Below are positions 7,677 to 26,850 of a stretch of 28,122 bases of DNA, piece after piece. Position 1 is the stretch's first letter. The number at the start of each line of letters is the position of its first letter. The stretch is taken from the UHGV virus genome UHGV-1710763. One strand, written 5' to 3'. The position numbers were made by a program, and so were the translations under genes. The notes beneath the pieces were generated by a model that ran no database searches, was not told the origin of the DNA, and saw nothing but the letters and a program-made list of their open reading frames with translations. Source of the DNA: a virus.

Positions 7677-8267
7677 TTAAGCTTTGGTCTTAAGTAGGTT
7701 CTTAAGTTTTTTAAGATTCATACTCTCATCAAACTTAAAACCAAATCCATTGACATAATCAATGAACTCGGATTTCTTACTGAGTGACAATGCGTAACTC
7801 ATATCAAAGTTCTTACTTGTTTCTGCGTCTGGACTAGAGTTCACATCAAATGAAATTTCTGTAGGCTCTTGCTTACTTTTCCTCATATTATCAACCAACA
7901 AACATGTATAGTTTGCTGGATAGAAGTTTACACTACCATCAACGTAGCTGTACTTATTATTATGGATAAGGTTGGAAAATACCTTAAGGAATGTTTCTGA
8001 GTCGTGGCAAACAAGTTTGAATTGGCTGCTCTCTCCAAGCGCAACTAATGAGTACGGACTTTCACTATCAAAGTCATAATTTGGATTCGATGCCGTCACT
8101 GTTACACGCATCAAGTTATTAGCAATAGTCTTCTGTTTAAAAGAATTTTGAACATAGTGAAGACCTCTATCACACTGATTGACTAGCTCTTTAAGTAGGT
8201 CATTTGCATATGGTGAATTAATTGATACAGAGCCATCACTATTGTAATTAAAACTTACTGTTAACAT
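7677..8267 (-). CDS. hypothetical protein (196 aa)
   Basis: ORF-track ORF. Confidence 0.55.
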   Translation of the reverse strand: MLTVSFNYNSDGSVSINSPYANDLLKELVNQCDRGLHYVQNSFKQKTIANNLMRVTVTASNPNYDFDSESPYSLVALGESSQFKLVCHDSETFLKVFSNLIHNNKYSYVDGSVNFYPANYTCLLVDNMRKSKQEPTEISFDVNSSPDAETSKNFDMSYALSLSKKSEFIDYVNGFGFKFDESMNLKKLKNLLKTKA

Positions 8268-8494
8268 TTTTCAGTTCTCCTGCGATTTATGATTTTGCTG
8301 CAATAGAGAAACGAAGTAAACTCACTGGAAGAAACCATTAAGTGTTGTTCACTAGATTGAGCCATTGCCCTGAAATACATTCCAGTCAAAGCATCATAGT
8401 GACTATTCTTTCCAATTGAGGTTATATAGCCATGACTCTTTGCAGTTTGATATAAATCTATAATATCTGCGATTTCTAATTGGGAACTACACAT
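8261..8494 (-). CDS. hypothetical protein (77 aa)
   Basis: ORF-track ORF. Confidence 0.45.
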   Translation of the reverse strand: MCSSQLEIADIIDLYQTAKSHGYITSIGKNSHYDALTGMYFRAMAQSSEQHLMVSSSEFTSFLYCSKIINRRRTEKC

Positions 8495-8658
8495 AGATAA
8501 TCCTCTTGTCTTCTGTAATTTTGAAAGAACAGGTACAGACCAATTTCAGAGGATGAATAGTAGATTGACTCTACCCTTTTTGATTCCTTACAGTGATTGG
8601 TATTCTTACCTTTCTTCGGTTTATTTGATTTTCTCATTAAGTCTCCTTTGTAGAACAA
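8476..8658 (-). CDS. hypothetical basic protein (60 aa), first gene of the leftward operon
   Basis: ORF-track ORF. Confidence 0.4.
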   Translation of the reverse strand: MFYKGDLMRKSNKPKKGKNTNHCKESKRVESIYYSSSEIGLYLFFQNYRRQEDYLCVVPN

Positions 8659-8736
8659 GGCAGACCTACAGCTTTAAGTAAGATGGTACAGTAATCCATA
8701 CAACAAGTCAAGAACTATTGCAAGTTAAAAAAGTTG

Positions 8737-8765
8737 TTGACAAAGTACTTGACAAGGTGTAGGCT
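8737..8765 (+). promoter_or_regulatory. candidate sigma70-like promoter (TTGACA with a weak -10) inside the conserved AAAAAGTTGTTGACA context
   Basis: TTGACA at 8737-8742; -10 candidate TAGGCT at 17-nt spacing is poor, with TATAAAT further downstream; same upstream context as the stronger promoters. Confidence 0.3.
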
Positions 8766-8818
8766 TATAAATACTTAGAAGATTACTTAAAAGGTTCCTC
8801 TAAAAAGGCTATTTAAAC

Positions 8819-8838
8819 AGATATCTTTCTGGATATCT
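8819..8838. promoter_or_regulatory. 7-bp inverted repeat AGATATC-N6-GATATCT (possible operator)
   Basis: Perfect palindrome arms read directly in the region between the divergent gene blocks. Confidence 0.3.
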
Positions 8839-8886
8839 ATCTTTTATCTTAAAAGCCTTTTAAGAGGTCTTATAAGAGGCATACCA

Positions 8887-9258
8887 ATGAAAAACAGAAC
8901 AAACAAAGGCCAGTTTAAAAAAGGCCAGTCTGGAAACCCATCTGGAAGACCCAAAGGCTCTCGTAACAAAAGTTCACTCGTAAAAGCTCAACTGACCATT
9001 GATAATTCTGCTGAGTTTGCTGCAAAGTTGTTTGAGGCGATTGTTACAAGGGACGCTGCTAAGCTTGCAGAGTTCGGGTTAAACACAGACGACGTAACCA
9101 TCAAGAGTATGATTGAGGTCGGTAAAACTATCATGACTCACTCAGCAGGTGAGATGAAAGCCATTGCAGCAGACACTAAGAAGACTCCTGATAATGGTGG
9201 TCAACAACAGACAGATAACAAACCAACGTTCTCTGCTGTAGCGACTCTTAAAAAATAA
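8887..9258 (+). CDS. hypothetical protein with N-terminal basic GNPSGRPKGSRNK motif (possible nucleic-acid binding)
   Basis: ORF-track ORF starting at an ATG; the motif resembles basic N-termini of phage DNA-binding proteins. Confidence 0.55.
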   Translation: MKNRTNKGQFKKGQSGNPSGRPKGSRNKSSLVKAQLTIDNSAEFAAKLFEAIVTRDAAKLAEFGLNTDDVTIKSMIEVGKTIMTHSAGEMKAIAADTKKTPDNGGQQQTDNKPTFSAVATLKK

Positions 9259-9270
9259 TTTTAAAAGGTG

Positions 9271-9300
9271 TTGACAGACTCTATAAAGTTGCTCTAAAGT
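9271..9300 (+). promoter_or_regulatory. sigma70-like promoter (TTGACA-18-TAAAGT) overlapped by a 9-bp inverted repeat
   Basis: TTGACA at 9271-9276; TAAAGT at 9295-9300; palindrome arms TGACAGACT (9272-9280) and AGTCTGTCA (9298-9306). Confidence 0.5.
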
Positions 9301-9339
9301 CTGTCACATCAAACAACAAATGAGAGAAGAGAGTAAAAT

Positions 9340-10755
9340 ATGAGCGAATTATTTAAACATGCGCACCTTCATGCAGGTCGAACTGAAAATGGTGCTGTAA
9401 ACCATACTTCATCAATGTCTGCTCTTGTAGACTTTTACAAAGCTGCTGGTTCAAGCCGTAGCAATGTAGAAATCTTACCAGACCTGTTCTACAAAGCTTT
9501 GCGTGAGGATGTTGATGTTGCAGTTCGTATTTTACTGCATATGCGAGATGTACGAGAAGGTATGGGTGAGCGTAAAGCCTTCAGAACTGTTTTGCTTCAA
9601 GCAATTGAAGATAAAGTTTTAGAGCCTACACAGGTTCTTCGCATTATGGATAAGATTGCAGAACTTGGTCGTTTTGATGACTTCAAAATCTTCGTAGGTA
9701 CTCGTTTCGAGACAGATGCCTTCAAACATTTAGAAGCAGCATTACTAGACCCTGCAACAGCAGGTTTGGCAGCTAAGTGGTTACCACGAGTAAAACCACG
9801 TCACAAACAGTTTGTAAAACGTTTCTGCAAGTTTGCAAACTTGAGTGAGAAGGAGTATCGCACACTGTTATCTGCACTGTCTGATACGGTTGAGCAAAAA
9901 ATCTCTGCTAATGAGTTTGGTAAGATTGACTACAGTAAGATTCCTTCACTTGCTGCTGCACGTTACCAAAAACTCTTTAACCGTAAAGATGGAGAACGCT
10001 ACAAAGCTTACATTGAGTCCTTATCAAAGGGCGAGACTAAGATTAATGCTGGTGCTGTTTATCCATACGATGTGATTAAATCTGTTAAGTATGGTAATGC
10101 AGATGTTGCTAATGAGCAGTGGAAAGCACTACCAAACTGGATGGCAGAGGGTGAAAACATTCTATGTATGTCTGATGTTTCAAGTTCAATGTCTTGGGTG
10201 AATTTTGGTTCAATTACTGCTCTTGATATTGGTGTTTCACTTGCATTGTATGTAGCAGAACGTAATACAGGTTGCTTTAAGAATGAGTTGATGGTTTATT
10301 CAACAAACCCTCACTTCATTGAACTGAGTGGTGATTTACGAAACCGTCATCGTCAGGTGATGCGACACGTTGAATATGGCTCAACTAACTTACAAGCAGC
10401 TTTTGACCGTATTCTTGAGACAGGTAAAAGAAACAACTTGACTCAGAAAGATATGCCAAGTAAGCTTATCATCTTCTCCGATATGGAGTTCAATCAGGTT
10501 GATGGAGCTAACGGTCGTACAAACTTTGAAGCAATTCAGAGTAAGTACAAAAAAGCTGGATATGAGATGCCACAACTGGTATTCTGGTACTTAGCAAACC
10601 GTAATGGCACTTGCGAAGTATCTGTTAAGGATAACGGTGTAGCAATGGTATCTGGTTTCTCTCCAGCCACTTTAAAAGCTTTGCTTGGTGGTGAGAAGTT
10701 TGACCCAATCAGCGTAATGCTCAAAGCAGTAATGATTGACCGTTATATCTGGTAA
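9340..10755 (+). CDS. Ro60/TROVE-like protein: alpha-helical N-terminal region plus C-terminal vWA domain with MIDAS motif (Rsr-like)
   Basis: MIDAS DxSxS in ILCMSDVSSSMSW; C-terminal IIFSDMEF; YPYDVIKSV segment; helical N-terminus. These parallel Ro60 segments as recalled from memory (HPFHILIAL, LLAVDVSASMN, VFIVFTDNE). Confidence 0.55.
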   Translation: MSELFKHAHLHAGRTENGAVNHTSSMSALVDFYKAAGSSRSNVEILPDLFYKALREDVDVAVRILLHMRDVREGMGERKAFRTVLLQAIEDKVLEPTQVLRIMDKIAELGRFDDFKIFVGTRFETDAFKHLEAALLDPATAGLAAKWLPRVKPRHKQFVKRFCKFANLSEKEYRTLLSALSDTVEQKISANEFGKIDYSKIPSLAAARYQKLFNRKDGERYKAYIESLSKGETKINAGAVYPYDVIKSVKYGNADVANEQWKALPNWMAEGENILCMSDVSSSMSWVNFGSITALDIGVSLALYVAERNTGCFKNELMVYSTNPHFIELSGDLRNRHRQVMRHVEYGSTNLQAAFDRILETGKRNNLTQKDMPSKLIIFSDMEFNQVDGANGRTNFEAIQSKYKKAGYEMPQLVFWYLANRNGTCEVSVKDNGVAMVSGFSPATLKALLGGEKFDPISVMLKAVMIDRYIW

Positions 10756-10765
10756 AAAGTTTTAA

Positions 10766-10802
10766 AAAGGGTATTGACAATGTGTTTGATACCCTTTAAT
10801 AT
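10766..10802 (+). promoter_or_regulatory. sigma70-like promoter (TTGACA-17-TAATAT) embedded in a 9-bp-stem hairpin just after the Ro60-like gene
   Basis: TTGACA 10774-10779, TAATAT 10797-10802; inverted repeat AAAGGGTAT (10766-10774) / ATACCCTTT (10789-10797). Confidence 0.55.
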
Positions 10803-10864
10803 TTTCTACATAGAAACGAAATGAGAGCTTTTCTAAGATACTGAAAAATATTTTAAAAAAGTTC

Positions 10865-10894
10865 TTGACAATCACTAAAAAATAATGTTAAAGT
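10865..10894 (+). promoter_or_regulatory. sigma70-like promoter ahead of the first tRNA
   Basis: TTGACA at 10865-10870; TAAAGT at 18-nt spacing; AAAAAAGTTCTTGACA upstream context. Confidence 0.45.
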
Positions 10895-10920
10895 GGTTAC
10901 ATAGAGTTTGAAAAGTTTAT

Positions 10921-10997
10921 CTCTGTTTAGCTCAGCTTGGTAGAGCGTTCCGTTTGGGGCGGTAAGGCCGGAGGTTCAAGTCCTCCAACAGAGACCA
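10921..10997 (+). tRNA. tRNA-Pro (anticodon TGG)
   Basis: Hand-folded cloverleaf: acceptor CTCTGTT / AACAGAG, D-arm GCTC..GAGC, anticodon loop TTTGGGG, T-arm GGAGG-TTCAAGT-CCTCC, encoded CCA. Confidence 0.7.
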
Positions 10998-11004
10998 AAT
11001 TAAT

Positions 11005-11082
11005 GTTCCAGTAGACAAAATGGTAAAGTCACCACTCTTTCAAAGTGGATATCTGAGGGTTCAAATCCCTTCTGGAACGCCA
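11005..11082 (+). tRNA. tRNA-Glu (anticodon TTC)
   Basis: Acceptor GTTCCAG / CTGGAAC; anticodon stem CCACT / AGTGG with loop CTTTCAA; T-loop TTCAAAT; CCA. Confidence 0.75.
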
Positions 11083-11173
11083 GTTTTGACAGAAGACCAA
11101 TTACAGCAAACTTAATCTTATTCATCTGAAGGTAAATCGGACAAAGAAGAGATTTGGTCTGGTCATTAAGAAT

Positions 11174-11250
11174 TGCGGGTATAGAGAAAGGGCGTCTCAC
11201 ATGTCTCATTAGCATGGTATCGGCAGGTTCGACTCCTGCACCCGCCTCCA
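11174..11250 (+). tRNA. tRNA with CAT anticodon (Met, fMet or Ile-lysidine; identity unresolved)
   Basis: Anticodon stem CATGT / GCATG with loop CTCATTA; T-arm GCAGG-TTCGACT-CCTGC; acceptor has a 1:72 mismatch; CCA. Confidence 0.65.
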
Positions 11251-11334
11251 AATTTACAGAAGACCGTTTACAGCAATACTTATTAAATTTTTAGCGGAAA
11301 AAATTGAAATATACGGTCTGGTAATACTAAACAT

Positions 11335-11411
11335 GGTTAGGAAGCACATAAGGTATGTGCGGTCGCCTGTTAAGCGAATGGCACAGGGTTCGAATCCCTG
11401 ACTAACCGCCA
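11335..11411 (+). tRNA. tRNA-Asn (anticodon GTT)
   Basis: Acceptor GGTTAGG / ACTAACC; D-arm GCAC..GTGC; loop CTGTTAA; T-arm CAGGG-TTCGAAT-CCCTG; CCA. Confidence 0.75.
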
Positions 11412-11480
11412 AATTTAGGAGAGAAGCAATTGCTCACCGATTTGTAAGGTGCAAGTCCTTAGCCTGAATAGAAATTAAAT

Positions 11481-11568
11481 GTGTCGTTATCCCGTAGATG
11501 GTAGCGGTGGGGACTGTAAATCCCTTGTCATTGAGACTCGGTAGGTTCGACTCCTACACGGCACACCA
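11481..11568 (+). tRNA. tRNA-Tyr (anticodon GTA), class II with long variable arm
   Basis: Acceptor GTGTCGT / ACGGCAC; anticodon stem GGGGA / TCCCT with loop CTGTAAA; ~15-nt variable arm; T-arm GTAGG-TTCGACT-CCTAC; CCA. Confidence 0.65.
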
Positions 11569-11573
11569 ATAAA

Positions 11574-11651
11574 GGTTATGTAGTTTAATTTGGTTAAAAT
11601 ACTCCCCTGTCACGGGAGATGATGAGGGTTCAAATCCCTTCGTAACCGCCA
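11574..11651 (+). tRNA. tRNA-Asp (anticodon GTC)
   Basis: Acceptor GGTTATG / CGTAACC; anticodon stem CTCCC / GGGAG with loop CTGTCAC; T-loop TTCAAAT; CCA. Confidence 0.75.
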
Positions 11652-11834
11652 ATTTTGAGAGGGCTATTTAGCCCCTCCCTTAAAGGGTTCTTACGAGTAT
11701 CCTTTAAAGGAGCAGAAGACCAAATACAGCAAGTTACTTAAAATTTCAAGCCAATTTAATTTTGAAAAATTTAAAACTTGGTCTGGCTCAACAAATTTAC
11801 AGAAGACCGTTTACAGCAAAACTTAAACAATCTA

Positions 11835-11907
11835 TTTCTCCGGTAAAGAAAAGGCGAAGGTTCGATTCCTTCACTCGGCAGATGTCGAGTTGGTGTAATG
11901 GTAGCAC
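11835..11907 (+). ncRNA. circularly permuted tRNA-like element (anticodon-like hairpin, T-arm, acceptor stem closed by an AGAT loop, D-arm); candidate Y-RNA-like tRNA mimic
   Basis: Order read directly: TTTCT-CCGGTAA-AGAAA, GAAGG-TTCGATT-CCTTC, ACTCGGC-AGAT-GTCGAGT (7 bp), TG, GTG-TAATGGTAG-CAC; no 5' acceptor partner upstream and no 3' half downstream. Confidence 0.35.
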
Positions 11908-11932
11908 TTAAGATGATAAACAACGGTCTGGT

Positions 11933-12076
11933 AATTATCTTTGTAGATAAGTTATTAAGCTTACCTGTGAGTATGCGACCACAAAGGGTGAAAGGGTAAA
12001 TTCTAGATTTAAACCTAACAAGGCACATCGCTACAGACCTTAAGCAAGTCTGGGTAGCTTATCTACAAAGATAATT
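11933..12076. repeat. perfect 18-19-bp inverted repeat flanking a ~106-bp segment (long hairpin, possible RNase III site or miniature element)
   Basis: ATTATCTTTGTAGATAAG at 11934-11951 is the exact reverse complement of CTTATCTACAAAGATAAT at 12058-12075. Confidence 0.6.
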
Positions 12077-12080
12077 TAAT

Positions 12081-12156
12081 GGAAGTGTAGCAGAATGGTG
12101 ATGCGGCAGACTTTTAATCTGACAGGCGATGGGTTCGAATCCCTCCACTTCTACCA
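12081..12156 (+). tRNA. tRNA-Lys (anticodon TTT)
   Basis: Acceptor GGAAGTG / CACTTCT; anticodon loop CTTTTAA; T-loop TTCGAAT; CCA; paralogue of the Lys(CTT) gene at 13309. Confidence 0.75.
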
Positions 12157-12161
12157 AAAAT

Positions 12162-12238
12162 GGTTCAGTCGCAGATAAGGTAATGCAAGGGTTTCATAAG
12201 CCCTATGAATGTGGGTTCGATTCCCACCTGAACCTCCA
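12162..12238 (+). tRNA. tRNA with CAT anticodon (second copy; Met / fMet / Ile2 unresolved)
   Basis: Acceptor GGTTCAG / CTGAACC perfect; anticodon stem AGGGT / GCCCT with loop TTCATAA; T-arm GTGGG-TTCGATT-CCCAC; CCA. Confidence 0.7.
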
Positions 12239-12239
12239 A

Positions 12240-12315
12240 GCTGGTATAGTTAAGAAGGTTATAACACTCCCCTGATAAGGGAACATCGGTGGTTCGATTC
12301 CACCTACCAGTACCA
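12240..12315 (+). tRNA. tRNA-Ile (anticodon GAT)
   Basis: D-arm GTTA..TAAC; anticodon loop CTGATAA; T-arm GGTGG-TTCGATT-CCACC; CCA. Confidence 0.7.
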
Positions 12316-12330
12316 ATTTCAATAAAGTTG

Positions 12331-12359
12331 TTGACATTGAGATGTGACTACTTTATAGT
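12331..12359 (+). promoter_or_regulatory. strong sigma70-like promoter inside the tRNA island (TTGACA-17-TATAGT)
   Basis: TTGACA 12331-12336, exactly 17-nt spacer, TATAGT 12354-12359, with the AATAAAGTTGTTGACA upstream context. Confidence 0.6.
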
Positions 12360-12562
12360 AACCTTAGTTTTCGTTGCGTAGCGTCTATTTTGCAAATTTA
12401 AAATAAATGCAAACGACAATGTTTTTCTGGCAGTAGCTTGATAGGCTAAACACCAGTGAGGTCTTCCAATCCCTCATCAAAGAATTTGGCGTACTAGCCC
12501 ACGGTATGATTAATAAGGTGGGCATCTTTAAGGGCTTTCTAAGAGAGTCTTTAAAGATTAAT

Positions 12563-12639
12563 GCACCCTTAGTTCAATTGGATAGAGCAACGGTCTTCTA
12601 AATCGTTAGTTACAGGTTCGAATCCTGTAGGGTGTACCA
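12563..12639 (+). tRNA. tRNA-Arg (anticodon TCT)
   Basis: Acceptor GCACCCT / AGGGTGT; D-arm GTTC..GAGC; anticodon stem ACGGT / ATCGT with loop CTTCTAA; T-arm ACAGG-TTCGAAT-CCTGT; CCA. Confidence 0.75.
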
Positions 12640-12780
12640 ATTAGTTAGCAGATTACTTAGACGACCTAAGCGGGTCTTCCTGTAGGGAGGTGGTCTGTAT
12701 CTCATGTTTTCCAGAACATGTAAATAATCTGAGAAGGGGCTTTACAGTGTTGAGATAATACGGTAAGCTTCGAATTATAG

Positions 12781-12867
12781 TATGGGACGATGTTAAGACT
12801 CTAAGGCATGAGCAACGGCTTCCAACACCGTTTCAAAGGGGTTCAACTCATCCGTCCCATGCCAAAG
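12781..12867 (+). ncRNA. unresolved tRNA-like structured element (11-bp terminal stem, 9-nt-loop hairpin with CTTCCAA, T-loop-like GGGGTTCAA, ends GCCA)
   Basis: TATGGGACGATG pairs with CATCCGTCCCATG; internal hairpin AACGG-CTTCCAACA-CCGTT; no canonical cloverleaf could be drawn. Confidence 0.3.
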
Positions 12868-12877
12868 TCTTATTAGG

Positions 12878-12965
12878 GGTAGGTAGCGGCTAATGGTAGC
12901 CAAACAGTCTTGAAAACTGTTGCCACTGTAGAGATACGGTGAGGGTTCGACTCCTTTACTTACCG
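12878..12965 (+). tRNA. tRNA-Ser (anticodon TGA), class II; CCA not encoded
   Basis: Acceptor GGTAGGT / ACTTACC; anticodon stem ACAGT / ACTGT perfect with loop CTTGAAA; long variable arm; T-loop TTCGACT. Confidence 0.6.
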
Positions 12966-13223
12966 CCTAATAAGATTTTACACCGTCCATGCTTGCTCGC
13001 ATTTTCGGTTTATCCCTCGTGTATTGTCGTACACACTGATAAAGCACCTAGTAGGTGTCACGGAGAAGAGATAATATCAAGCTCTCCAAAGGTTCTAGCC
13101 ACCGGATTAAACAAGACTATGCAAAGACCTTTTTAGGTCTTTTTAGAGGGCTTCTAAGGTTATTACAGCTTGTTGTGGAACCTTGTTGCTTAGGTTCTTA
13201 GAAGTTCTCTAAAAAGATTTAAT

Positions 13224-13301
13224 GGGAGATTGACGGTAATTGGTAAACCTACCATCCTTAGAAGTTGGTGTTTGAGGGTTCGAATCCCTTGTCTCCTACC
13301 A
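13224..13301 (+). tRNA. tRNA, anticodon provisionally TAG (Leu) on a class-I-length scaffold; identity uncertain
   Basis: Acceptor GGGAGAT / GTCTCCT (two G-U pairs); loop CTTAGAA between CCATC / GTTGG (one mismatch); T-arm GAGGG-TTCGAAT-CCCTT; CCA; D-arm irregular. Confidence 0.5.
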
Positions 13302-13308
13302 AATTAAT

Positions 13309-13384
13309 GCAGGTGTAGCAAAATGGTTATGCGGCTGACTCTTAATCAGTAAGACGATGGGTTCAATTCCCTCCACCTGTACCA
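13309..13384 (+). tRNA. tRNA-Lys (anticodon CTT)
   Basis: Acceptor GCAGGTG / CACCTGT; anticodon stem GCTGA / TCAGT with loop CTCTTAA; T-loop TTCAATT; CCA. Confidence 0.75.
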
Positions 13385-13391
13385 AACAATG

Positions 13392-13467
13392 GGGGTCATA
13401 GTTTATATGGTTAAAATTCGAGTTTTGCAAACTTGGGAACTGAGTTCAATTCTCAGTGACTCCACCA
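13392..13467 (+). tRNA. tRNA-Ala (anticodon TGC)
   Basis: Acceptor GGGGTCA / TGACTCC; anticodon stem CGAGT / ACTTG with loop TTTGCAA; T-arm CTGAG-TTCAATT-CTCAG; CCA. Confidence 0.75.
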
Positions 13468-13473
13468 ATTAGT

Positions 13474-13548
13474 GCATCCATAGTTTAAACGGGAAAATTA
13501 CAGTCTTCCAAACTGAGGTTGAGGGTTCGATTCCCTCTGGATGCTCCA
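13474..13548 (+). tRNA. tRNA-Gly (anticodon TCC)
   Basis: Acceptor GCATCCA / TGGATGC perfect; loop CTTCCAA; T-arm GAGGG-TTCGATT-CCCTC; CCA. Confidence 0.75.
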
Positions 13549-13562
13549 AATTAAGGTGTGAT

Positions 13563-13976
13563 ATGAAAATATGCAGTACTTGCAGAATACCAAAAGATGA
13601 AAGCTTATTCCATAAGAATAAGAACAAGAAAGACGGTCTTCAAAGTCAATGCAAAGATTGTGCAAGACTTCGTGATGCAAAGAGTTATCAAGCAAATGAT
13701 AAAAGGAAAGAGGCTATTAAAAGCACTCGTAACTTCAAGAGAGAGCATAACAAGACTCTAGCTAGAAGGTACAAAGCTTTATGCAAATGTCATATATGTG
13801 GTGAGAAAGAACCAGTTGCACTGGATTTACACCATACAGACCCTTCCCAGAAAGATTTGAATCCTGCATCACTTTATTCATACTCCACAAAAAGATTAAA
13901 AGATGAAATCAGAAAGTGCATTGTCTTGTGCGCTAACTGTCACAGAAAAGTACATGCTGGTATCATAAAAGTTTAA
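13563..13976 (+). CDS. HNH family endonuclease (free-standing homing-endonuclease-like gene)
   Basis: Cys pairs CKDC and CKCHIC plus an HNH core (LDLHHTD ... N ... CANCHRKVH) in the translation; sits between tRNA-Gly and tRNA-Thr. Confidence 0.7.
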   Translation: MKICSTCRIPKDESLFHKNKNKKDGLQSQCKDCARLRDAKSYQANDKRKEAIKSTRNFKREHNKTLARRYKALCKCHICGEKEPVALDLHHTDPSQKDLNPASLYSYSTKRLKDEIRKCIVLCANCHRKVHAGIIKV

Positions 13977-13977
13977 T

Positions 13978-14054
13978 GCTGCTTTCGTATAATTGGCTAT
14001 TACACATCCCTTGTAAGGATGGAAATGCAGGTTCGAGTCCTGTGAGCAGCACCA
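13978..14054 (+). tRNA. tRNA-Thr (anticodon TGT)
   Basis: Acceptor GCTGCTT / GAGCAGC; anticodon stem CATCC / GGATG perfect with loop CTTGTAA; T-loop TTCGAGT; CCA; starts 2 nt after the HNH stop codon. Confidence 0.8.
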
Positions 14055-14149
14055 ATTCAGAGGTCAAGTGAAAGACCGCTGGTGTCAACTGAAGACCGTA
14101 ACAAATTCCACGGAGTTGAGTTAGCGGCACAACTTCAGACCTCTTTCAT

Positions 14150-14224
14150 ACTCGCTTAGTTTATATGGTAAAACATCACCCTTACAAGATGAAGAGAAAG
14201 GTTCAAGCCCTTTAGTGAGTACCA
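14150..14224 (+). tRNA. tRNA-Val (anticodon TAC)
   Basis: Acceptor ACTCGCT / AGTGAGT; D-arm GTTT..AAAC; loop CTTACAA; T-arm AAAGG-TTCAAGC-CCTTT; CCA. Confidence 0.65.
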
Positions 14225-14225
14225 T

Positions 14226-14303
14226 GTTCCAGTATCCCAATTGGCAGAGGATGCAAGCTCAAACCTTGTACTAGTGACGGTTCGAATCCGTCTTGGAACA
14301 CCA
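14226..14303 (+). tRNA. tRNA with CAA anticodon (Leu-type) but only a 6-nt variable region
   Basis: Acceptor GTTCCAG / TTGGAAC; anticodon stem GCAAG / CTTGT with loop CTCAAAC; T-arm GACGG-TTCGAAT-CCGTC; A73; CCA. Confidence 0.6.
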
Positions 14304-14308
14304 ATTTT

Positions 14309-14384
14309 GCAGGATTAGTTCAAATGGATAGAGCAACAGTCTACGAAGCTGTTAATAGGGGTTCGAATCCCTTATCCTGCGCCA
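14309..14384 (+). tRNA. tRNA-Arg (anticodon ACG)
   Basis: Acceptor GCAGGAT / ATCCTGC perfect; D-arm GTTC..GAGC; anticodon stem ACAGT / GCTGT with loop CTACGAA; T-loop TTCGAAT; CCA. Confidence 0.8.
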
Positions 14385-14403
14385 ATTTAAAGAGGCTATT
14401 TAG

Positions 14404-14961
14404 ATGAGATATTTGAAGTATGCTTCATGGATTTTCTTAGCTTTGTTAGAGCCATTTGCAGCAATCTTAGCAGTTATCTTAGCACCTTTTGTAGTTCCAT
14501 TCTACAGTGAGAAGAAAGGACACTTACCTTTCGGATTCAGATGGATGGAGACATATGACAACCCAATTGATGGTGATGAAGGTCACGTTAAAAGATGGGC
14601 TAATATTAGATGGATTGGTAAACTAGGTGTCTACATGCAAAGAGTCGGATGGCTCTGGAGAAACAAAGCTTATAACTTCTCTTACCATGTATTAGGAAGA
14701 GATGTAAAAGATGTTACTAAGTGGAAAGGTAATATCAACGTAAGTTCTAACCCTGAAGATAATCAGACAGGTTATCTCCTAATGTGGAACAGCAATGCTT
14801 GGGGATTATTCGCTTTTATCCCATCAATTAAAATCTTTGGTAAACAGTTCTACTGGAGAATTTATATTGGGTGGAAGCTAAAAAGTGTTGTCCCAGAAGA
14901 AAGAGCATTCTCAAGGGAAAGAGTTATGTTGGCATTCTTTATTCATCCACTAAGAAAGTAA
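14404..14961 (+). CDS. hypothetical membrane protein (hydrophobic N-terminus, Trp-rich)
   Basis: ORF-track ORF; N-terminal hydrophobic stretch WIFLALLEPFAAILAVILAPFVV; embedded between tRNA genes. Confidence 0.55.
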   Translation: MRYLKYASWIFLALLEPFAAILAVILAPFVVPFYSEKKGHLPFGFRWMETYDNPIDGDEGHVKRWANIRWIGKLGVYMQRVGWLWRNKAYNFSYHVLGRDVKDVTKWKGNINVSSNPEDNQTGYLLMWNSNAWGLFAFIPSIKIFGKQFYWRIYIGWKLKSVVPEERAFSRERVMLAFFIHPLRK

Positions 14962-14969
14962 AGATTTAA

Positions 14970-15045
14970 AGGGGATTAGTTTACAAGGTTAAAACCTCGG
15001 TCTTTGAAATCGAAGAAGTTGGTTCAATTCCAACATCCCCCGCCA
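14970..15045 (+). tRNA. tRNA-Gln (anticodon TTG)
   Basis: D-arm GTTT..AAAC; anticodon stem TCGGT / ATCGA with loop CTTTGAA; T-arm GTTGG-TTCAATT-CCAAC; weak 1:72 pair; CCA. Confidence 0.7.
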
Positions 15046-15047
15046 AT

Positions 15048-15126
15048 GCTCCATTACTCCAATTGGCAGAGAGGCCAGACTTAAAATCTGTGTTATGTAT
15101 CGGTTCGAATCCGATATGGAGTACCA
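15048..15126 (+). tRNA. tRNA with TAA anticodon (Leu-type) but only a 7-nt variable region
   Basis: Acceptor GCTCCAT / ATGGAGT; anticodon loop CTTAAAA; T-arm ATCGG-TTCGAAT-CCGAT; A73; CCA. Confidence 0.6.
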
Positions 15127-15131
15127 AATTT

Positions 15132-15207
15132 AGCGGTATAGCATAACTGGCAATGCAACAGTCTCTGAAGCTGTCTTATTAAGGTTCAAATCCTTATGCC
15201 GCTGCCA
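15132..15207 (+). tRNA. tRNA-Gln (anticodon CTG)
   Basis: Acceptor AGCGGTA / TGCCGCT; anticodon stem ACAGT / GCTGT with loop CTCTGAA; T-arm TAAGG-TTCAAAT-CCTTA; CCA. Confidence 0.7.
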
Positions 15208-15238
15208 CTTCTAAGGGTTCTTACGAGAGTCCTTAAAT

Positions 15239-15314
15239 GTGGCCTTATCATAAATGGTAATGACCCATGCTGTGAACATGGTCTATACGGGTTCAAATCC
15301 CGTAGGTCACCCCA
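15239..15314 (+). tRNA. tRNA-His (anticodon GTG)
   Basis: Acceptor GTGGCCT / AGGTCAC; D-arm TCAT..ATGA; anticodon stem CCATG / CATGG perfect with loop CTGTGAA; C73 discriminator; CCA. Confidence 0.75.
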
Positions 15315-15321
15315 ATTTATA

Positions 15322-15396
15322 GTCCAAGTAGCTTATATGGTTAAAGCGCGTGTCTGAAAAACATGAGAAGAGGGTTCAAATCCCACTGGACTACCA
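15322..15396 (+). tRNA. tRNA-Phe (anticodon GAA); acceptor register ambiguous
   Basis: D-arm GCTT..AAGC; anticodon stem CGTGT / ACATG with loop CTGAAAA; T-loop TTCAAAT; ends ACCA. Confidence 0.65.
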
Positions 15397-15412
15397 ATTT
15401 CAAAGGTGCTTA

Positions 15413-16147
15413 ATGAAAGAGATGACAGAACAAGGTAAGGAGATTTTTAATCTCTTAAAAACCGGTAAAGGGTTTTCTAACCCACTTATTACTGGTGCAG
15501 CAGTTCTCGGTGGAACCGTAGCTGCCTCTACATCACTTGTAAGCTCTATTAGCTCTGTAACAGACCCTACAACGAAGGAGAAACTTGTTGCTGCTGGACT
15601 TACAACAGTTCTTCTAAACAGCTTTACAACAAGCCTGACAAGCACTACAGCAACTACTAAGACCCTAACAGACTACGGTCAAAAGTCTATTGATGAGTTT
15701 TCATCACGTATGCAGGTGGCAAAGGGATATTCCAATGTTATGGGTGCAGCAGGAGAACAAGTTGGTTGTACACCATTCAGTGGTATTATGGGTGTTGCTA
15801 CAGAGTATGGTCAGCAAGCTATTGACATGATTAACAGCACACTAGACAGTGTTAACGGTGTGTTAAGTGACTTACAAGATGCTATTGACAAGGGTCTTGA
15901 TACTGTTTCTGATTTAGCTAACCAAGCTGTAAGTAAGATTAATGAAGGTATTTCAAAGATTACAGCTTATGCAGATGAAGTTGTGCAGATGATTGAAGAA
16001 GAAGCTGCCCTTATTGCAGAGTACCTTAAAACGAATATCAATGGGTTCTTAGCAGGTATCTTACCAGACTGGTTTGATGATGCCTGTAAAACTGGTGTAA
16101 TTGACACTATTGCAACACCAGAAATGAAGAACGCATTACAGAAATAA
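15413..16147 (+). CDS. hypothetical Ser/Thr-rich protein; start moved downstream of the track ORF (15350) to the first ATG clear of tRNA-Phe
   Basis: Track ORF 15350..16147 overlaps the tRNA at 15322-15396; the in-frame ATG at 15413 has AAAGGTG upstream. Confidence 0.55.
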   Translation: MKEMTEQGKEIFNLLKTGKGFSNPLITGAAVLGGTVAASTSLVSSISSVTDPTTKEKLVAAGLTTVLLNSFTTSLTSTTATTKTLTDYGQKSIDEFSSRMQVAKGYSNVMGAAGEQVGCTPFSGIMGVATEYGQQAIDMINSTLDSVNGVLSDLQDAIDKGLDTVSDLANQAVSKINEGISKITAYADEVVQMIEEEAALIAEYLKTNINGFLAGILPDWFDDACKTGVIDTIATPEMKNALQK

Positions 16148-16148
16148 T

Positions 16149-16241
16149 GGAAGATTAACCCTAAAAGGTAAGGGAGCAGTTTGCTAAACTGCCAGTAGCT
16201 GAGAAATCGGTGTACCAGTTCAAGTCTGGTATCTTCCTCCA
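16149..16241 (+). tRNA. tRNA-Ser (anticodon GCT), class II with long variable arm
   Basis: Acceptor GGAAGAT / ATCTTCC perfect; anticodon stem GCAGT / ACTGC perfect with loop TTGCTAA; ~20-nt variable arm; T-arm ACCAG-TTCAAGT-CTGGT; CCA. Confidence 0.8.
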
Positions 16242-16245
16242 ATTT

Positions 16246-16321
16246 GAATCCGTGACAGAAATGGCTATGTGCCTGTCTGCAAAACAGGTTTATAAGGGTT
16301 CGAGTCCCTTCGGATTCTCCA
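16246..16321 (+). tRNA. tRNA-Cys (anticodon GCA)
   Basis: Acceptor GAATCCG / CGGATTC perfect; anticodon stem CCTGT / ACAGG perfect with loop CTGCAAA; T-arm AAGGG-TTCGAGT-CCCTT; CCA. Confidence 0.8.
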
Positions 16322-16358
16322 AGTTATTTTACTCTCTCTCAATTAAAATAATAATAAT

Positions 16359-16418
16359 GCCCTGCTATAAGTATTCTTCCTTTCGCTACCGAAGAGTATT
16401 TTTAGACAGGGCTTTTTT
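16359..16418 (+). terminator. compound hairpin followed by a T-run (terminator closing the tRNA island)
   Basis: GCCCTG ... CAGGGC followed by TTTTTT at 16413-16418, with an inner imperfect hairpin. Confidence 0.45.
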
Positions 16419-16483
16419 ACAGAGTTATACTTTATAAGAAGCCTTATACAGTATGTCTCTGACGTACATTGTGGTTTCTCCTT

Positions 16484-16507
16484 GACGGTCTCTGTACCGT
16501 CTTTTTT
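16484..16507 (+). terminator. Rho-independent terminator
   Basis: GACGGT-CTCTGT-ACCGTC followed by TTTTTT. Confidence 0.6.
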
Positions 16508-16543
16508 AAGGGGAAACATGATTAACTATTTGGAGAAAACATA

Positions 16544-16744
16544 ATGAGCGAGACCGTTTATAAAGAACTTTATGAAGCTAATAAGAAGCTAGAATTTATG
16601 CAGAATACTATCATGGCAATTGCAGACAGATTGTCTGTAGCAACAGGTATTGATATTAAAGAAGCATCTATGGATGCACTTCTTGATGCTGTTGATGCAA
16701 AGTTCGAAGTTAAGAAAGAAGAGACTGCTACAGACTCTGAATAA
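16544..16744 (+). CDS. hypothetical protein (66 aa) immediately upstream of the large terminase
   Basis: ORF-track ORF; GGAG ribosome-binding site upstream; position is typical of a small packaging protein but nothing in the sequence confirms that. Confidence 0.45.
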   Translation: MSETVYKELYEANKKLEFMQNTIMAIADRLSVATGIDIKEASMDALLDAVDAKFEVKKEETATDSE

Positions 16745-16765
16745 TTCTATTTGCGGAGGCGCTTA

Positions 16766-18367
16766 ATGGACTTAAATGCTGTTAAGCAGAAGCGAGTGGA
16801 AGATGTTAGGAAAGTCCTAGCTGGAGAGTTGGGGCTTTCTGATGAAGTAAAAGAAATTATCAAATCATTCGGTAAAGACCCCTCTAAATTCCTTCCAACT
16901 CAAATTCTGACTTTATTAAGATACACACCAGACCAAGTTAGACTTATCTTCAAATTGATGACTGATAAGAACTATGTAGCCCCTCAGCCGGGTTCTCAAG
17001 AGGTCTTTTTAAATACTAATGCTGACTTGGTTCTCTATGGTGGTGCTGCTGGTGCTGGTAAAACTGCTGCATTGTTAATGGACTCTTTAAGATTTATTGA
17101 AGACCCTAACTATAATGCTGTATATTTCCGTCGAAATACAACACAGCTACAAGGTGGTTTATGGCCTGCTGCAAAGAAACTATTTGGTAAGTTTGGTGGG
17201 ATTCCTCACGAGCAGAAAATGACTATCACATTCCCTTCTGGGGCAACTATCAAGTTTACCTACCTAGAACTTGAAAAGCACGCTGAAGGTCATCAGGGTA
17301 TTGAATACTCAGCTATTTACTTTGACGAAGGTACACACTTCTCTGCTTCACAGATTTCATACCTACAAACCCGTCTACGTTCTGGTGCTGAAGGCGATTC
17401 ATACATGAAGATTTCCATGAACCCAGACAGAGACCATTTTATTTATGATTGGGTAGAACCATTCTTAGATGAAGAAGGTTATCCAGACCCTGAAAAGTGT
17501 GGTCGTATTCGTTGGTATGTAATGAACGATGGCGTGATGGTTTCTGATTGGGAGAGAGACAAGATTCTTGAAATGTTCCCTCTTGAGATTCCTCAAACAT
17601 ACACCTTCATCTCTGGTACGATTGATGATAACCCAATTCTTGACTTCTTAGAACCAAAGTATCGCGGTAAGCTTGAAACCAACACTCCTGTAAACGTTGC
17701 AAGACTTCGTTTCGGTAACTGGAAGGCTCGTGCAGAAGGTTCAAACTATTGGCAAAGACAATGGTGTGAGATTGTTGATTCACTCCCAGAAGATGTATTT
17801 GATGTTAGAGCATGGGACTTAGCAGCAACTTTACCATCTGAGATTAACCCTAATCCAGACTGGACAGCAGGTGTTAAGATGGGTAAATCTAAAAAAGACG
17901 GTTGCTATTATATCATTGATGTAGTAAGATTTAGAGATAGACCCTCTGGAGTCGAAACACAAATTAATTTGACTGCTGAAAGTGACGGTAAGCGAACTGG
18001 TATTTTTATCCCTCAAGACCCAGGCGCTGCTGGTAAATCCTACGCAACATCCCTCATCAGGAAACTTGCCGAGAAAGGCTATCGTGCAAGAGCTAAACCA
18101 ACAAATAAAGATAAAGTTACCCGCTTTGCGGGATTTTCTGCTGCTTCTGAAGCTGGACTTGTAAAAGTCTTGAGAGGTAGTTGGAATGAAGCTTACTTTC
18201 AAGAGCTTGAAGGCTTTTGTGGTGACGGCAAAACTAAAGATGACCAAGTGGATGCTACCAGTGATGCTTTCAACAGTCTGAACGAAGTTAAATTATTCAA
18301 GCCACCATCAATGGGTGCTCACACAGACTTAGTGAGAGGAAACCCATATGAGGGGCTTAGACGTTGA
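16766..18367 (+). CDS. terminase large subunit
   Basis: Walker A motif GGAAGAGKT in LVLYGGAAGAGKTAALL; ~530 aa; track ORF starts at a TTG at 16751, so the ATG at 16766 with GGAGG 5 nt upstream is preferred. Confidence 0.8.
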   Translation: MDLNAVKQKRVEDVRKVLAGELGLSDEVKEIIKSFGKDPSKFLPTQILTLLRYTPDQVRLIFKLMTDKNYVAPQPGSQEVFLNTNADLVLYGGAAGAGKTAALLMDSLRFIEDPNYNAVYFRRNTTQLQGGLWPAAKKLFGKFGGIPHEQKMTITFPSGATIKFTYLELEKHAEGHQGIEYSAIYFDEGTHFSASQISYLQTRLRSGAEGDSYMKISMNPDRDHFIYDWVEPFLDEEGYPDPEKCGRIRWYVMNDGVMVSDWERDKILEMFPLEIPQTYTFISGTIDDNPILDFLEPKYRGKLETNTPVNVARLRFGNWKARAEGSNYWQRQWCEIVDSLPEDVFDVRAWDLAATLPSEINPNPDWTAGVKMGKSKKDGCYYIIDVVRFRDRPSGVETQINLTAESDGKRTGIFIPQDPGAAGKSYATSLIRKLAEKGYRARAKPTNKDKVTRFAGFSAASEAGLVKVLRGSWNEAYFQELEGFCGDGKTKDDQVDATSDAFNSLNEVKLFKPPSMGAHTDLVRGNPYEGLRR

Positions 18368-25497: not shown

Positions 25498-26850
25498 ATG
25501 TGGAATCCAATTGTTAATGTAGACATTACATTGAACACCGCAGGAACTACAAGAGAAGGTTTTGGTTTGCCACTATTCTTAGCTTCAACAGATAACTTTG
25601 AAGAAAGAGTACGTGGTTACACTTCCTTAACTGATGTTGCTGAAGATTTCGATGAAAACTCTGCTGCATATAAGGCTGCTAAACAACTTTGGAGTCAGAC
25701 TCCTAAAGTAACTCAGCTTTATATTGGTAGACGTGCTATGCAGTACACTGTATCAATTCCTGATGCCGTTACCGAAAGTACAGACTACTCAATTACTGTA
25801 GCTGCTGGCGGTGGAATTTCTCAACCATACCAGTACACAGCACAAGATTCAGACACTGCTGAGGTAGTGTTGCAACAGTTTAAAACACAGATTGAAGCTG
25901 ACCCAACAATCAAATATAAGGTTTCTGTGAATGTAACTGGTAGCAATGGCTCTGCCACAATGATTATTACCAAAGCTGGTGATAATGACTTTGTGAAAGT
26001 AACAACCACAGCACAGACTGTATATATTGCAAGTACAACTGCCGATACAGCATCAACTGCTCTGGCAGCTATCGAAGCTTATTCTACCGACTGGTATTTC
26101 ATTGCAGCAGAAGACAGAACTCAACAGTTTGTCTTAGCAATGGCTTCTGAGATTCAGGCTCGCAAGAAAATCTTCTTTACAGCTAACTCTGATGTAGCAG
26201 CACTGCAAGGGACAGAATTAGCCAGTGCAAATGATGTTCCAGCACAGCTTGCTAAGAATATGTACACTCGCACAGTTTGCTTGTGGCATCACGCAGCAGC
26301 AGAAGATTACCCAGAGATGGCATACATTGCTTATGGTGCTCCATATGATGCAGGTTCAATTGCTTGGGGTAATGCTCAGCTAACTGGTGTAGCAGCTTCT
26401 CTACAACCTTCTAATCAGAGACCTCTGACAAGTATTCAGAAGTCAGCTTTAGATGCACGTCACTGTAACTTTATTGACCTTGATGGTGGTGTTCCAGTGG
26501 TTCGTAGAGGGATTACTTCTGGTGGGGAATGGATTGATATCATCCGTGGTGTTGACTGGTTAGAATCAGACCTGAAAACTTCTCTGAGAGACTTGCTAAT
26601 TAACCAGAAGGGTGGTAAGATTACTTATGATGATACTGGTATTACCCGTATTCGTCAAGTCATTGAAACCTCTCTGCAAAGAGCAGTCAACAGAAACTTC
26701 CTGTCATCTTACACAGTTAATGTTCCTAAAGCCTCTCAAGTTGCTTTGGCAGACAAGAAAGCTCGTATCCTGAAAGATGTTACCTTCGCAGGTATCTTAG
26801 CAGGGGCTATCTTGGATGTTGACTTGAAAGGTACAGTGGCTTACGAATAA
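25498..26850 (+). CDS. putative tail sheath protein
   Basis: 450-aa gene followed by a 148-aa gene, two small chaperone-like genes and a probable tape-measure start, the usual order for contractile tails; no motif-level proof. Confidence 0.45.
   Translation: MWNPIVNVDITLNTAGTTREGFGLPLFLASTDNFEERVRGYTSLTDVAEDFDENSAAYKAAKQLWSQTPKVTQLYIGRRAMQYTVSIPDAVTESTDYSITVAAGGGISQPYQYTAQDSDTAEVVLQQFKTQIEADPTIKYKVSVNVTGSNGSATMIITKAGDNDFVKVTTTAQTVYIASTTADTASTALAAIEAYSTDWYFIAAEDRTQQFVLAMASEIQARKKIFFTANSDVAALQGTELASANDVPAQLAKNMYTRTVCLWHHAAAEDYPEMAYIAYGAPYDAGSIAWGNAQLTGVAASLQPSNQRPLTSIQKSALDARHCNFIDLDGGVPVVRRGITSGGEWIDIIRGVDWLESDLKTSLRDLLINQKGGKITYDDTGITRIRQVIETSLQRAVNRNFLSSYTVNVPKASQVALADKKARILKDVTFAGILAGAILDVDLKGTVAYE

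Follow-up and report, generated by a model that had tools for sequence, protein, structure and literature searches.

Does the gene at positions 9340-10755 of the virus genome UHGV-1710763 (the window, i.e., the whole stretch of 28,122 nucleotides analysed) encode a phage counterpart of the RNA-binding protein Ro60/Rsr, and does the neighbouring tRNA island supply its RNA partners? Ro60-Y RNA particles are conserved from bacteria to humans and Ro60 is a major human autoantigen, yet their functions are only partly understood; to our knowledge very few Y RNAs have been found outside animals and a subset of bacteria. An earlier note on this DNA, made from the letters alone, had proposed an Rsr plus Y-RNA-like module here, and our analysis supports this interpretation: the open reading frame (ORF) probably encodes a Ro60-type RNA-binding protein, with four RNAs of the tRNA island (R1-R4) as its cognate Y-like RNAs, together forming an anti-defence ribonucleoprotein (RNP). 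The window is a Felixounavirus genome segment. Over the gene region it shares 99.6% identity with Felixounavirus LF82P2 and 97% with Felix O1, in which the gene corresponds to ORF42 (Felix01p079). The ORF itself was confirmed with its exact ends, an ATG start and 471 amino acids (aa), and is organised as follows:

9340..10755, + strand: Ro60-like protein gene, an ATG-initiated ORF of 471 aa; ortholog of Felix O1 ORF42 and Bas63 gp130; Pfam DUF2828 plus DUF7788, PHROG 850
9340..10134, + strand: N-terminal all-helical region, ~aa 1-265, the counterpart of the Ro60 HEAT-repeat ring (predicted secondary structure)
10159..10704, + strand: vWA domain, aa 274-455, alpha/beta, DUF7788 (profile match and predicted structure); includes T349 and D381
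10174-10188, + strand: MIDAS motif DVSSS, residues 279-283 (alignment)

By sequence, the protein belongs to a family that is common in phages. Pfam hidden Markov models (HMMs) matched it at 148.8 bits for DUF7788 (curated cutoff 27.1) and 102.2 bits for DUF2828 (curated cutoff 29), and the profile phrog_850 ('RNA-binding protein') did so over its full length (E 4.4e-184). A tblastn search led to 710 phage records, with hosts including Escherichia, Salmonella, Vibrio, Campylobacter, Mycobacterium, Listeria, Staphylococcus and Enterococcus; the DUF2828 Ro60-like family is matched by over 2,500 protein clusters. Its members are annotated differently from record to record: 'hypothetical', 'vWFA protein', 'RNA-binding protein' or 'Ro-like RNA binding protein'.

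The predicted structure of the window protein (predicted local distance difference test, pLDDT, 88.8; predicted template modelling score, pTM, 0.88) has the Ro60/Rsr architecture, namely an alpha-helical HEAT-repeat ring followed by a vWA domain that carries a MIDAS; in structural comparison 392 residues aligned to Ro60, with a fold match to entry 2NVO. Among 45 aligned homologs (40-89% identical to the window protein), D279, S281, S283, T349 and D381, the complete MIDAS signature of DxSxS plus T and D, are invariant, as are several Arg/Lys-rich motifs in the N-terminal half; conserved basic/acidic motifs of the N-terminal region include RDVRxGxGER (aa 69-78), GRxDD (aa 110-114) and KW (aa 146-147). 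The helical N-terminal region and the vWA domain with MIDAS DVSSS, both read from the sequence beforehand, were thereby borne out, and the comparison of the predicted structure with Ro60 revealed a Ro60-like fold that includes the N-terminal region.

The 'segments resembling Ro60 landmarks' that had also been claimed hold at the level of the fold but not at that of sequence. The TROVE profile (Pfam PF05731) had no match in the window protein at E<=1, and the HMM search suggested for this gene returned DUF2828 and DUF7788; neither the Pfam nor the NCBIfam searches gave direct sequence evidence for TROVE. Searches of PDB sequences by phmmer and with the family profile found nothing significant, TROVE chains being touched only at E 1.7 in the MIDAS region. 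The Pfam model vWA_Ro60 was weakly matched by eight of the 45 family members (best E 1.7e-4). Because sequence searches for TROVE gave nothing significant, the link to Ro60 rests on the fold together with this weak vWA_Ro60 signal, and the protein is filed as a DUF2828/DUF7788 protein with a Ro60 fold, apart from canonical TROVE/Rsr by sequence.

The tRNA elements noted earlier near the gene proved to be 26 tRNA genes on the + strand, the first at 10921, 166 nt past the Ro60-like gene. In the tRNA spacers the motif AGAAGACC-NNN-TACAGCAA was seen four times on the + strand (0.00 expected), and the motif AGAAGACCNNNTACAGCAA has four occurrences in the window (0.00 expected); each of the four motif copies is paired with GGUCUGG 55-125 nt downstream. 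Four paralogous elements thus lie at 11087-11934 on the + strand, ~0.3-1.2 kb downstream of the Ro60-like gene:

11087..11165, + strand: R1, short Y-like RNA in the tRNA-Glu/tRNA-Met spacer; short-form model 29.4 bits, E 6.4e-6
11254..11324, + strand: R2, short Y-like RNA in the tRNA-Met/tRNA-Asn spacer; short-form model 34.6 bits, E 2.2e-7, the best in the window
11710..11789, + strand: R3, short Y-like RNA in the tRNA-Asp/tRNA-Lys gap; short-form model 26.9 bits, E 3.1e-5
11797..11934, + strand: R4, long YrlA-like Y RNA with the same closing stem and ACAGCAA; long-form model 60.5 bits, E 3.2e-11

R1-R4 share a fold composed of an outer 4-bp stem, an internal loop with AGA opposite G, and an inner 7-8-bp stem; single-stranded UACAGCAA comes after the inner stem in all four, and ACAGCAA is the conserved single-stranded motif that follows the closing stem. 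Differences among the paralogs are compensatory in both the outer stem (UGAC/GUCA, UUAC/GUAA or GAGC/GCUC) and the inner stem (..AA/UU.. or ..GU/AC..): R1 has UGAC/GUCA, the loop AGA opposite G and the inner stem AGACCAA/UUGGUCU followed by UUACAGCAA, R2 has UUAC/GUAA and AGACCGU/ACGGUCU, and the outer stem of R3 is GAGC/GCUC. R1 and R2 occupy their tRNA spacers almost exactly, starting 3-5 nt after one tRNA and ending 8-10 nt before the next, while R3 and R4 share an unannotated 429-nt gap between tRNA-Asp and tRNA-Lys. All four elements are also found in Felix O1, Bas63 and three other Ounavirinae (Sf18, phiSUSP1 and Mordin/Moogle); rare stem substitutions among the Ounavirinae keep the pairing via G-U. 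G-U pairs are present only when the sequence is read on the + strand.

No Rfam 15 family matched R1-R4 in a permissive scan of 8200-17000, which gave a partial tRNA in R4 (22 versus gathering 29 bits) and otherwise noise, and Rfam 15 gave nothing at the related elements of Mycobacterium phage Gabriela (L002) or Listeria phage cka15 (L003). No description of the family was found in Rfam 15 or the searchable literature, an earlier mention elsewhere being not fully excluded. The RNA partner appears to be new, and, while the protein is filed apart, the RNAs are filed as a Y RNA variant.

The permuted tRNA-like element that had been pointed out was located ~1.05 kb downstream of the gene, at 11856-11907 inside R4. 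It consists of i) a T arm, GAAGG-UUCGAUU-CCUUC (11856-11872), ii) a closed acceptor-like 7-bp hairpin, ACUCGGC-AGAU-GUCGAGU (11873-11890), followed by UG, and iii) a D arm, GUGU-AAUGGUA-GCAC (11893-11907). This is the permuted order of YrlA (T stem-loop, closed acceptor-like stem-loop, 2 nt, D stem-loop), with UUCRA in the T-loop and GG in the D-loop; the parts measure 17, 18, 2 and 15 nt, versus 17, 15, 2 and 15 nt in the tRNA-like domain of Salmonella YrlA, which is enclosed by the stem of the Rsr site. In R4 as well, a stem of the 5' and 3' ends encloses the tRNA-like domain, as folds and covariation indicate, and R4, encoded on the + strand, begins 1.04 kb past the stop codon, within the <4 kb of a Ro60-type gene, on the same strand, expected of a YrlA. 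On the other hand, the 5' motif GNCGAAN0-1G of YrlA is absent from R4, where the conserved 5' motif is (A/U)C(A/C)GCAA; the GGCGAAGG of R4 was rejected as a YrlA-type Rsr site because it is located at the T-stem junction and is not conserved (GGCGAGG in L002, GUCGUGG in L017). R4 is not a canonical tRNA either: its arms are permuted, a loop closes its acceptor-like stem, ARAGORN makes no tRNA call there, and it scores below the Rfam tRNA gathering score. YrlA-type Y RNAs are substrates of TruB and DusA, enzymes that modify tRNA, and are bound by Rsr in vivo. Across three Ounavirinae lineages the acceptor-like hairpin of R4 comes in three unrelated sequences, all of them pairing (ACUCGGC/GUCGAGU, ACACG/CGUGU and ACCCUUC/GAAGGGU), while the T and D arms stay constant.

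The search for relatives covered 80 IMG/VR loci around homologs (75 at 39-47% identity), mycobacteriophage Gabriela and Listeria phage cka15; counts for distant loci below refer to 77 of these loci. A descriptor of the permuted tRNA (T arm, closed hairpin, ~2 nt, D arm) gave 27 non-tRNA matches, one of them in the gap right behind the mycobacteriophage gene, versus 1-3 in shuffles of ~1 Mb on both strands. In every good match the core lay inside a 7-8-bp stem of phage-specific sequence, with (A/U)C(A/C)GCAA after its 5' strand and G after its 3' strand. A strict descriptor of this stem and motif then found 73 elements within 1 kb of the gene and on its strand, in 51 of the 77 distant loci, versus five on the opposite strand and 4-6 in shuffles; up to 1 kb from the gene, elements were about ninefold denser than farther off.

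Two covariance models were built exclusively from non-Ounavirinae: a short-form model (model R1, alignment A2) of 28 elements from distant phages and a long-form model (model R2, alignment A4) of ten distant tRNA-like elements. In the short-form seed, six sequences were padded with one leading 'A' in column 1, an unpaired flank, leaving paired and motif columns untouched. Descriptor matches that resembled tandem-tRNA artefacts and lacked the closing stem and motif were kept out of the seeds; L037:8154 and L068:7528 were retained despite tRNA-end-like CCAA in their acceptor-like loops, both stem and motif being present. Run unfiltered over the whole window, the short-form model ranked R2, R1 and R3 as its top three matches, with the next at E 0.021, and the match of the long-form model to R4 was full-length, every modelled pair being standard; the Bas63 ortholog of R4 scored 60.6 bits. 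In the distant loci, all 70 short-form matches (E<=0.01) and all 24 long-form matches (E<=1e-5) fell on the strand of the gene. At least one match was present in 57 of the 77 distant loci, among them 28 of the 48 that have no tRNA at all, and since these tRNA-less loci have matches as well, the RNA element follows the gene rather than tRNA islands.

Base pairing in both forms is supported by covariation. In the short form, seven of seven pairs showed double-sided changes, paired cells amounted to 98.9% (62.8% when shuffled), and the covariation score was 0.881, versus 0.195 for shuffled alignments and at most 0.18 for slid registers. In the long form, double-sided changes were seen in 20 of 22 pairs with all four helices represented, 96.7% of cells were paired (59.2% shuffled), and the score was 0.915 (0.216 shuffled). 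The cleaner evidence is the enrichment by descriptor together with the independent matches in the window, because the alignments were fitted by the models and the seeds picked by descriptor.

Within this constant scaffold the interiors vary: i) short AU-rich loops in R1-R3 and most other copies; ii) permuted tRNA mimics in R4 and 23 others; iii) tRNA bodies in normal order (D, anticodon and T arms) at L062:5734-5833 and L068:5759-5852, where the Y-like closing stem replaces the acceptor stem; and iv) a recurrent non-tRNA module, CCUUUCUGGAGGGGAAAGCAAAAACUCGCC, at L014:5277-5369, L015:3134-3231 and L040:5734-5828. Y RNAs likewise combine a constant protein-binding stem with a variable effector module. 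Tandem arrangement recurs: three members lie directly downstream of the gene in mycobacteriophage Gabriela (L002:5443-5710) and three directly upstream of it in Listeria phage cka15 (L003:3617-3890), in both cases in unannotated DNA and with one long form, and three tRNA-like copies stand just upstream of the gene at L017:5282-5675.

What such a protein does for a phage has been measured for a close relative. According to the PhageMaP preprint (PMC11482910), gp130 of Bas63 (Escherichia phage JohannRWettstein) is structurally similar to Ro60; its deletion leads to tiny Bas63 plaques on a ppl-expressing host, and complementation rescues them. Bas63 gp130 (bas63_0130, MZ501086) is 98% identical to the window protein (461 of 471 residues) and occupies the same position directly upstream of tRNA-Pro, so that the anti-ppl activity is established in the literature for an ortholog. 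A Listeria phage study made the same assignment by HHpred for CKA15_055 of cka15, a 29% identical homolog. As the likeness to Ro60 has already been reported for the Bas63 and Listeria homologs, the interpretation at the protein level is correct but not new.

The RNA partner of this DUF2828 Ro60-like member with a measured anti-defence phenotype had, however, not been pinned down. The preprint speculated about Y RNA partners and guessed that some annotated tRNAs may be Y RNAs, and the Listeria study wondered whether abundant nearby transcripts, unassigned so far, are Y RNAs; our candidates, in contrast to the annotated tRNAs of the preprint, are unannotated spacer elements, and a defined covarying RNA family beside the gene makes the earlier guess directly testable. 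The Listeria paper also reported two further highly transcribed unannotated regions near tRNA genes, to which the tandem Y-like elements of cka15 may correspond. The minus-strand 'hypothetical protein' bas63_0137 is annotated over R4 in Bas63. Small 'hypothetical protein' ORFs over R3/R4 or R1/R2, two of them antisense, are bas63_0137/0138 (L092:22749-23023) and ALH47023 of phiSUSP1 (L005:2163-2333). Those annotated over R1-R4 are probably spurious, so that the R1-R4 assignment would correct several annotations, and PhageMaP insertions assigned to genes 137/138 may report on Y-like RNAs.

Among known systems, bacterial Rsr with YrlA/YrlB (Salmonella, Mycobacterium; PMC4201824; bioRxiv 10.1101/312249) is alike in i) the ring-plus-vWA fold of the protein, ii) RNA genes on the strand of the protein gene and no more than a few kb away, iii) a closing stem of the 5' and 3' ends with a conserved motif, and iv) one RNA being a permuted tRNA mimic beside shorter paralogs that have none. 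It differs in that the window protein has no TROVE match and belongs to a different Pfam family, that R1-R4 carry (A/U)C(A/C)GCAA immediately 3' of the 5' strand of the stem in place of GNCGAAN0-1G, and that the window has no rtcBA RNA-repair operon, the elements being embedded in a tRNA operon instead. The Ro60 of Thermus phage phiLo (PMC12135203; PDB 9KOP, 9L5Y) is of the TROVE type and binds two adjacent Y-like RNAs, Yrl1 and Yrl2, as well as host PNPase; unlike the window protein it is annotated as a TROVE-domain protein, the profile similarity of the two is not significant (E 1.7, MIDAS region only), and its RNAs have a CGAA motif and lie upstream of the gene, whereas those of the window have another motif and lie downstream. 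In the Deinococcus radiodurans Rsr-Y RNA-PNPase (RYPER) machine, the Ro ring is joined to an effector nuclease through a Y RNA, which is the principle proposed here; the tRNA-like elements of that Y RNA are arranged differently, and the effector is PNPase, whereas that of the phage protein is hypothetical.

A mechanism that would accommodate these observations is as follows. In Ro60/Rsr the Y RNA is bound on the outer surface of the ring and misfolded RNA ends in the central hole. The phage protein, with its helical ring-like N-terminal domain and vWA/MIDAS domain, would be an RNA-binding protein of the phage-rich DUF2828/DUF7788 family, and the closing stem plus (A/U)C(A/C)GCAA its binding site, equivalent to the stem by which Y RNAs bind Ro. 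R1-R4 would probably be freed from a polycistronic transcript by the enzymes that process the flanking tRNAs (RNase P and 3' processing), since the ends of R1 and R2 lie within a few nt of these tRNAs. The variable interior of the RNA would serve as the effector module. In R4 this is a tRNA mimic in circularly permuted order, like that of bacterial YrlA, through which the particle could be tethered to an enzyme that recognises tRNAs or to an exoribonuclease of the host, for instance PNPase. The RNP might then reshape RNA decay or repair during infection and thereby aid evasion of host defence.

Several points weigh against this reading. At the protein level, no TROVE match appeared in any of the 45 family members even at E<=10, and the window protein is shorter than Ro60 (471 versus ~530 aa), its ring closure being presumed. 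At the RNA level, YrlA-type binding is not transferable by homology, because the motif is not GNCGAAN0-1G; 20 of the 77 distant loci have no element, some of them being short contigs; model-derived alignments lean toward structure, and the seeds had been chosen by a pairing descriptor. The promoter- and terminator-like sites around the gene are consensus matches, the promoter-like ones being no more numerous in the region than in shuffles. Binding of the RNAs by the protein, their release by tRNA processing, the effector partner and the connection of the RNAs with anti-defence are what we infer from the arrangement. Most directly, gp130 alone, from a plasmid or within T7, rescues T7 on the ppl strain (PMC11482910), and hence the ppl phenotype does not need phage RNAs. 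The phage RNAs may have another function, may modulate the protein or may be replaceable by host RNAs.

The T7 result could also mean that the protein alone inhibits a host defence factor, e.g., by binding ppl via its vWA/MIDAS face, with the Ro60 shape a leftover and the RNAs not its ligands. We consider this unlikely: it explains neither why 51-57 of the 77 very distant loci, a good many tRNA-less ones included, have a covarying, strand-specific RNA no farther than 1 kb from the gene, nor why Arg/Lys-rich motifs are invariant in the helical ring domain; the T7 result itself does not exclude an RNP, because the protein could use host RNAs in T7. Alternatively, R1-R4 and their relatives might be cis-acting signals, either autoregulatory operators in untranslated regions (UTRs) or processing or stability marks of polycistronic transcripts. 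The element abuts the 3' or 5' end of the gene in most distant loci, typically at 20-300 nt, and could therefore lie in the UTR of its mRNA, and the consensus scan identified no dedicated promoters or terminators for the elements. In the window, however, a terminator-like hairpin, two promoter-like sites and several tRNAs separate the elements from the gene; moreover, the elements occur as 2-4 tandem copies, and their elaborate interiors, some of them complete tRNA-like domains in which T, D and acceptor-like helices covary, are needless for a simple operator or cleavage signal, which makes a cis-acting role quite improbable. That R4 is a decayed or rearranged tRNA pseudogene, R1-R3 repeated spacer debris and the Ro60-like neighbour a coincidence is disfavoured as very improbable: the elements do sit inside a 26-tRNA island that has homing-endonuclease insertions in relatives, and tandem tRNAs can mimic the T-then-D order, as in a few descriptor matches (the clearest, L003:347-403, rejected as an artefact, has its T arm within an Rfam-called tRNA and its D arm within the next tRNA), but tandem tRNAs reach only E 0.03 or worse on the long-form model versus 3e-11 for R4, the same architecture and motif stand beside homologous genes in phages that have no tRNA islands, and the hairpin swaps among three Ounavirinae genera, T and D arms constant, preserved pairing.

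The Ro60-type RNP reading can be carried further. Whether R1-R4 represent a widespread, undescribed class of phage Y RNA, marked by a covarying closing stem and an invariant (A/U)C(A/C)GCAA loop and the dedicated partner of DUF2828-type Ro60-like proteins, which displays interchangeable effector modules and so forms a modular RNA-guided counter-defence particle, is in our judgement evenly balanced. If so, the class would span phages of Proteobacteria, Actinobacteria, Firmicutes and many uncultured hosts, and its effector modules (permuted mimics, acceptor-less tRNA bodies and other motifs) would engage tRNA-recognising host enzymes or defence nucleases. The assignment of R1-R4 also suggests that phage tRNA islands carry functional non-tRNA passengers matured by the tRNA-processing machinery.

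Two further observations concern Listeria phage cka15. In the Listeria phage study, mass spectrometry of purified virions detected the product of CKA15_055 (20 peptides, 57% coverage), which is not a structural-module gene; if presence in the virion were general, the Ro-like protein might enter along with the genome and act at once. In addition, L003:2428-2979 (OR088597.1, ~26195-26746) holds a near-threshold match to ROOL RNA (RF03087) over the full model (90.1 bits versus gathering 99.1, E 2.3e-17), between tRNA-Pro and the Ro-like gene and over three tiny 'hypothetical' ORFs, CKA15_059-061. According to the Listeria transcriptome paper, which gives no identity for it, the transcript from 26,236-26,727 far exceeds all others of the phage in abundance, and ~67% of phage transcripts map to CKA15_059/060 by 40 min; the abundant transcript is probably ROOL RNA.

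Candidate control elements around the Ro60-like gene, all from consensus scans, are the following:

9271..9300, + strand: sigma-70-like promoter candidate TTGACA-18-TAAAGT, 40 nt upstream of the ORF (consensus match)
10766..10797, + strand: terminator-like hairpin followed by a T-rich tail, just past the stop codon
10774-10802, + strand: promoter-like site TTGACA-17-TAATAT, overlapping the terminator-like hairpin and preceding tRNA-Pro
10865..10894, + strand: promoter-like site TTGACA-18-TAAAGT with TG, 27 nt ahead of tRNA-Pro, the first tRNA

Judged by these sequence matches, the Ro60-like gene seems equipped with a promoter-like site (9271-9300) and a terminator-like hairpin (10766-10797) of its own, and the site at 10865..10894 is the likely start of the tRNA and small-RNA transcript. 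Two neighbours were rejected as general partners of the gene: the upstream DUF5681 gene, confined to Ounavirinae plus one contig, and an RtcB ligase, found near the Listeria phage homolog only.

The island holds other structures besides. Right after R4 and before tRNA-Lys, a 22-nt inverted repeat (11933-11954/12055-12076, 95% complementary) surrounds 100 nt and might represent a further structured RNA; in the other Ounavirinae genera this stretch of the gap is not conserved. Three further tRNA-free gaps of ~240-260 nt (12316-12562, 12640-12877 and 12968-13223) have no + strand ORF of at least 60 aa, and neither Y-like model matches in them. The first contains a promoter-like site, TTGACA-17-TATAGT, at ~12331 and weak tmRNA-type matches (15-29 bits), and tmRNA and permuted-tmRNA matches at 12257-12562 were rejected as overlapping tRNA-Ile and lying far below threshold; the third includes a long hairpin (13129-13228), for which an unrelated miRNA-precursor model gives 32.7 bits (E 6e-4). 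Finally, Felix O1 (L001:11739-12467) carries the HNH homing-endonuclease genes ORF44 and ORF45 within its tRNA island, which are absent from the window (12081-12315), while the window has an intact tRNA-Met (12162-12238) that is missing from the Felix O1 annotation, a case of endonuclease-driven island variation.

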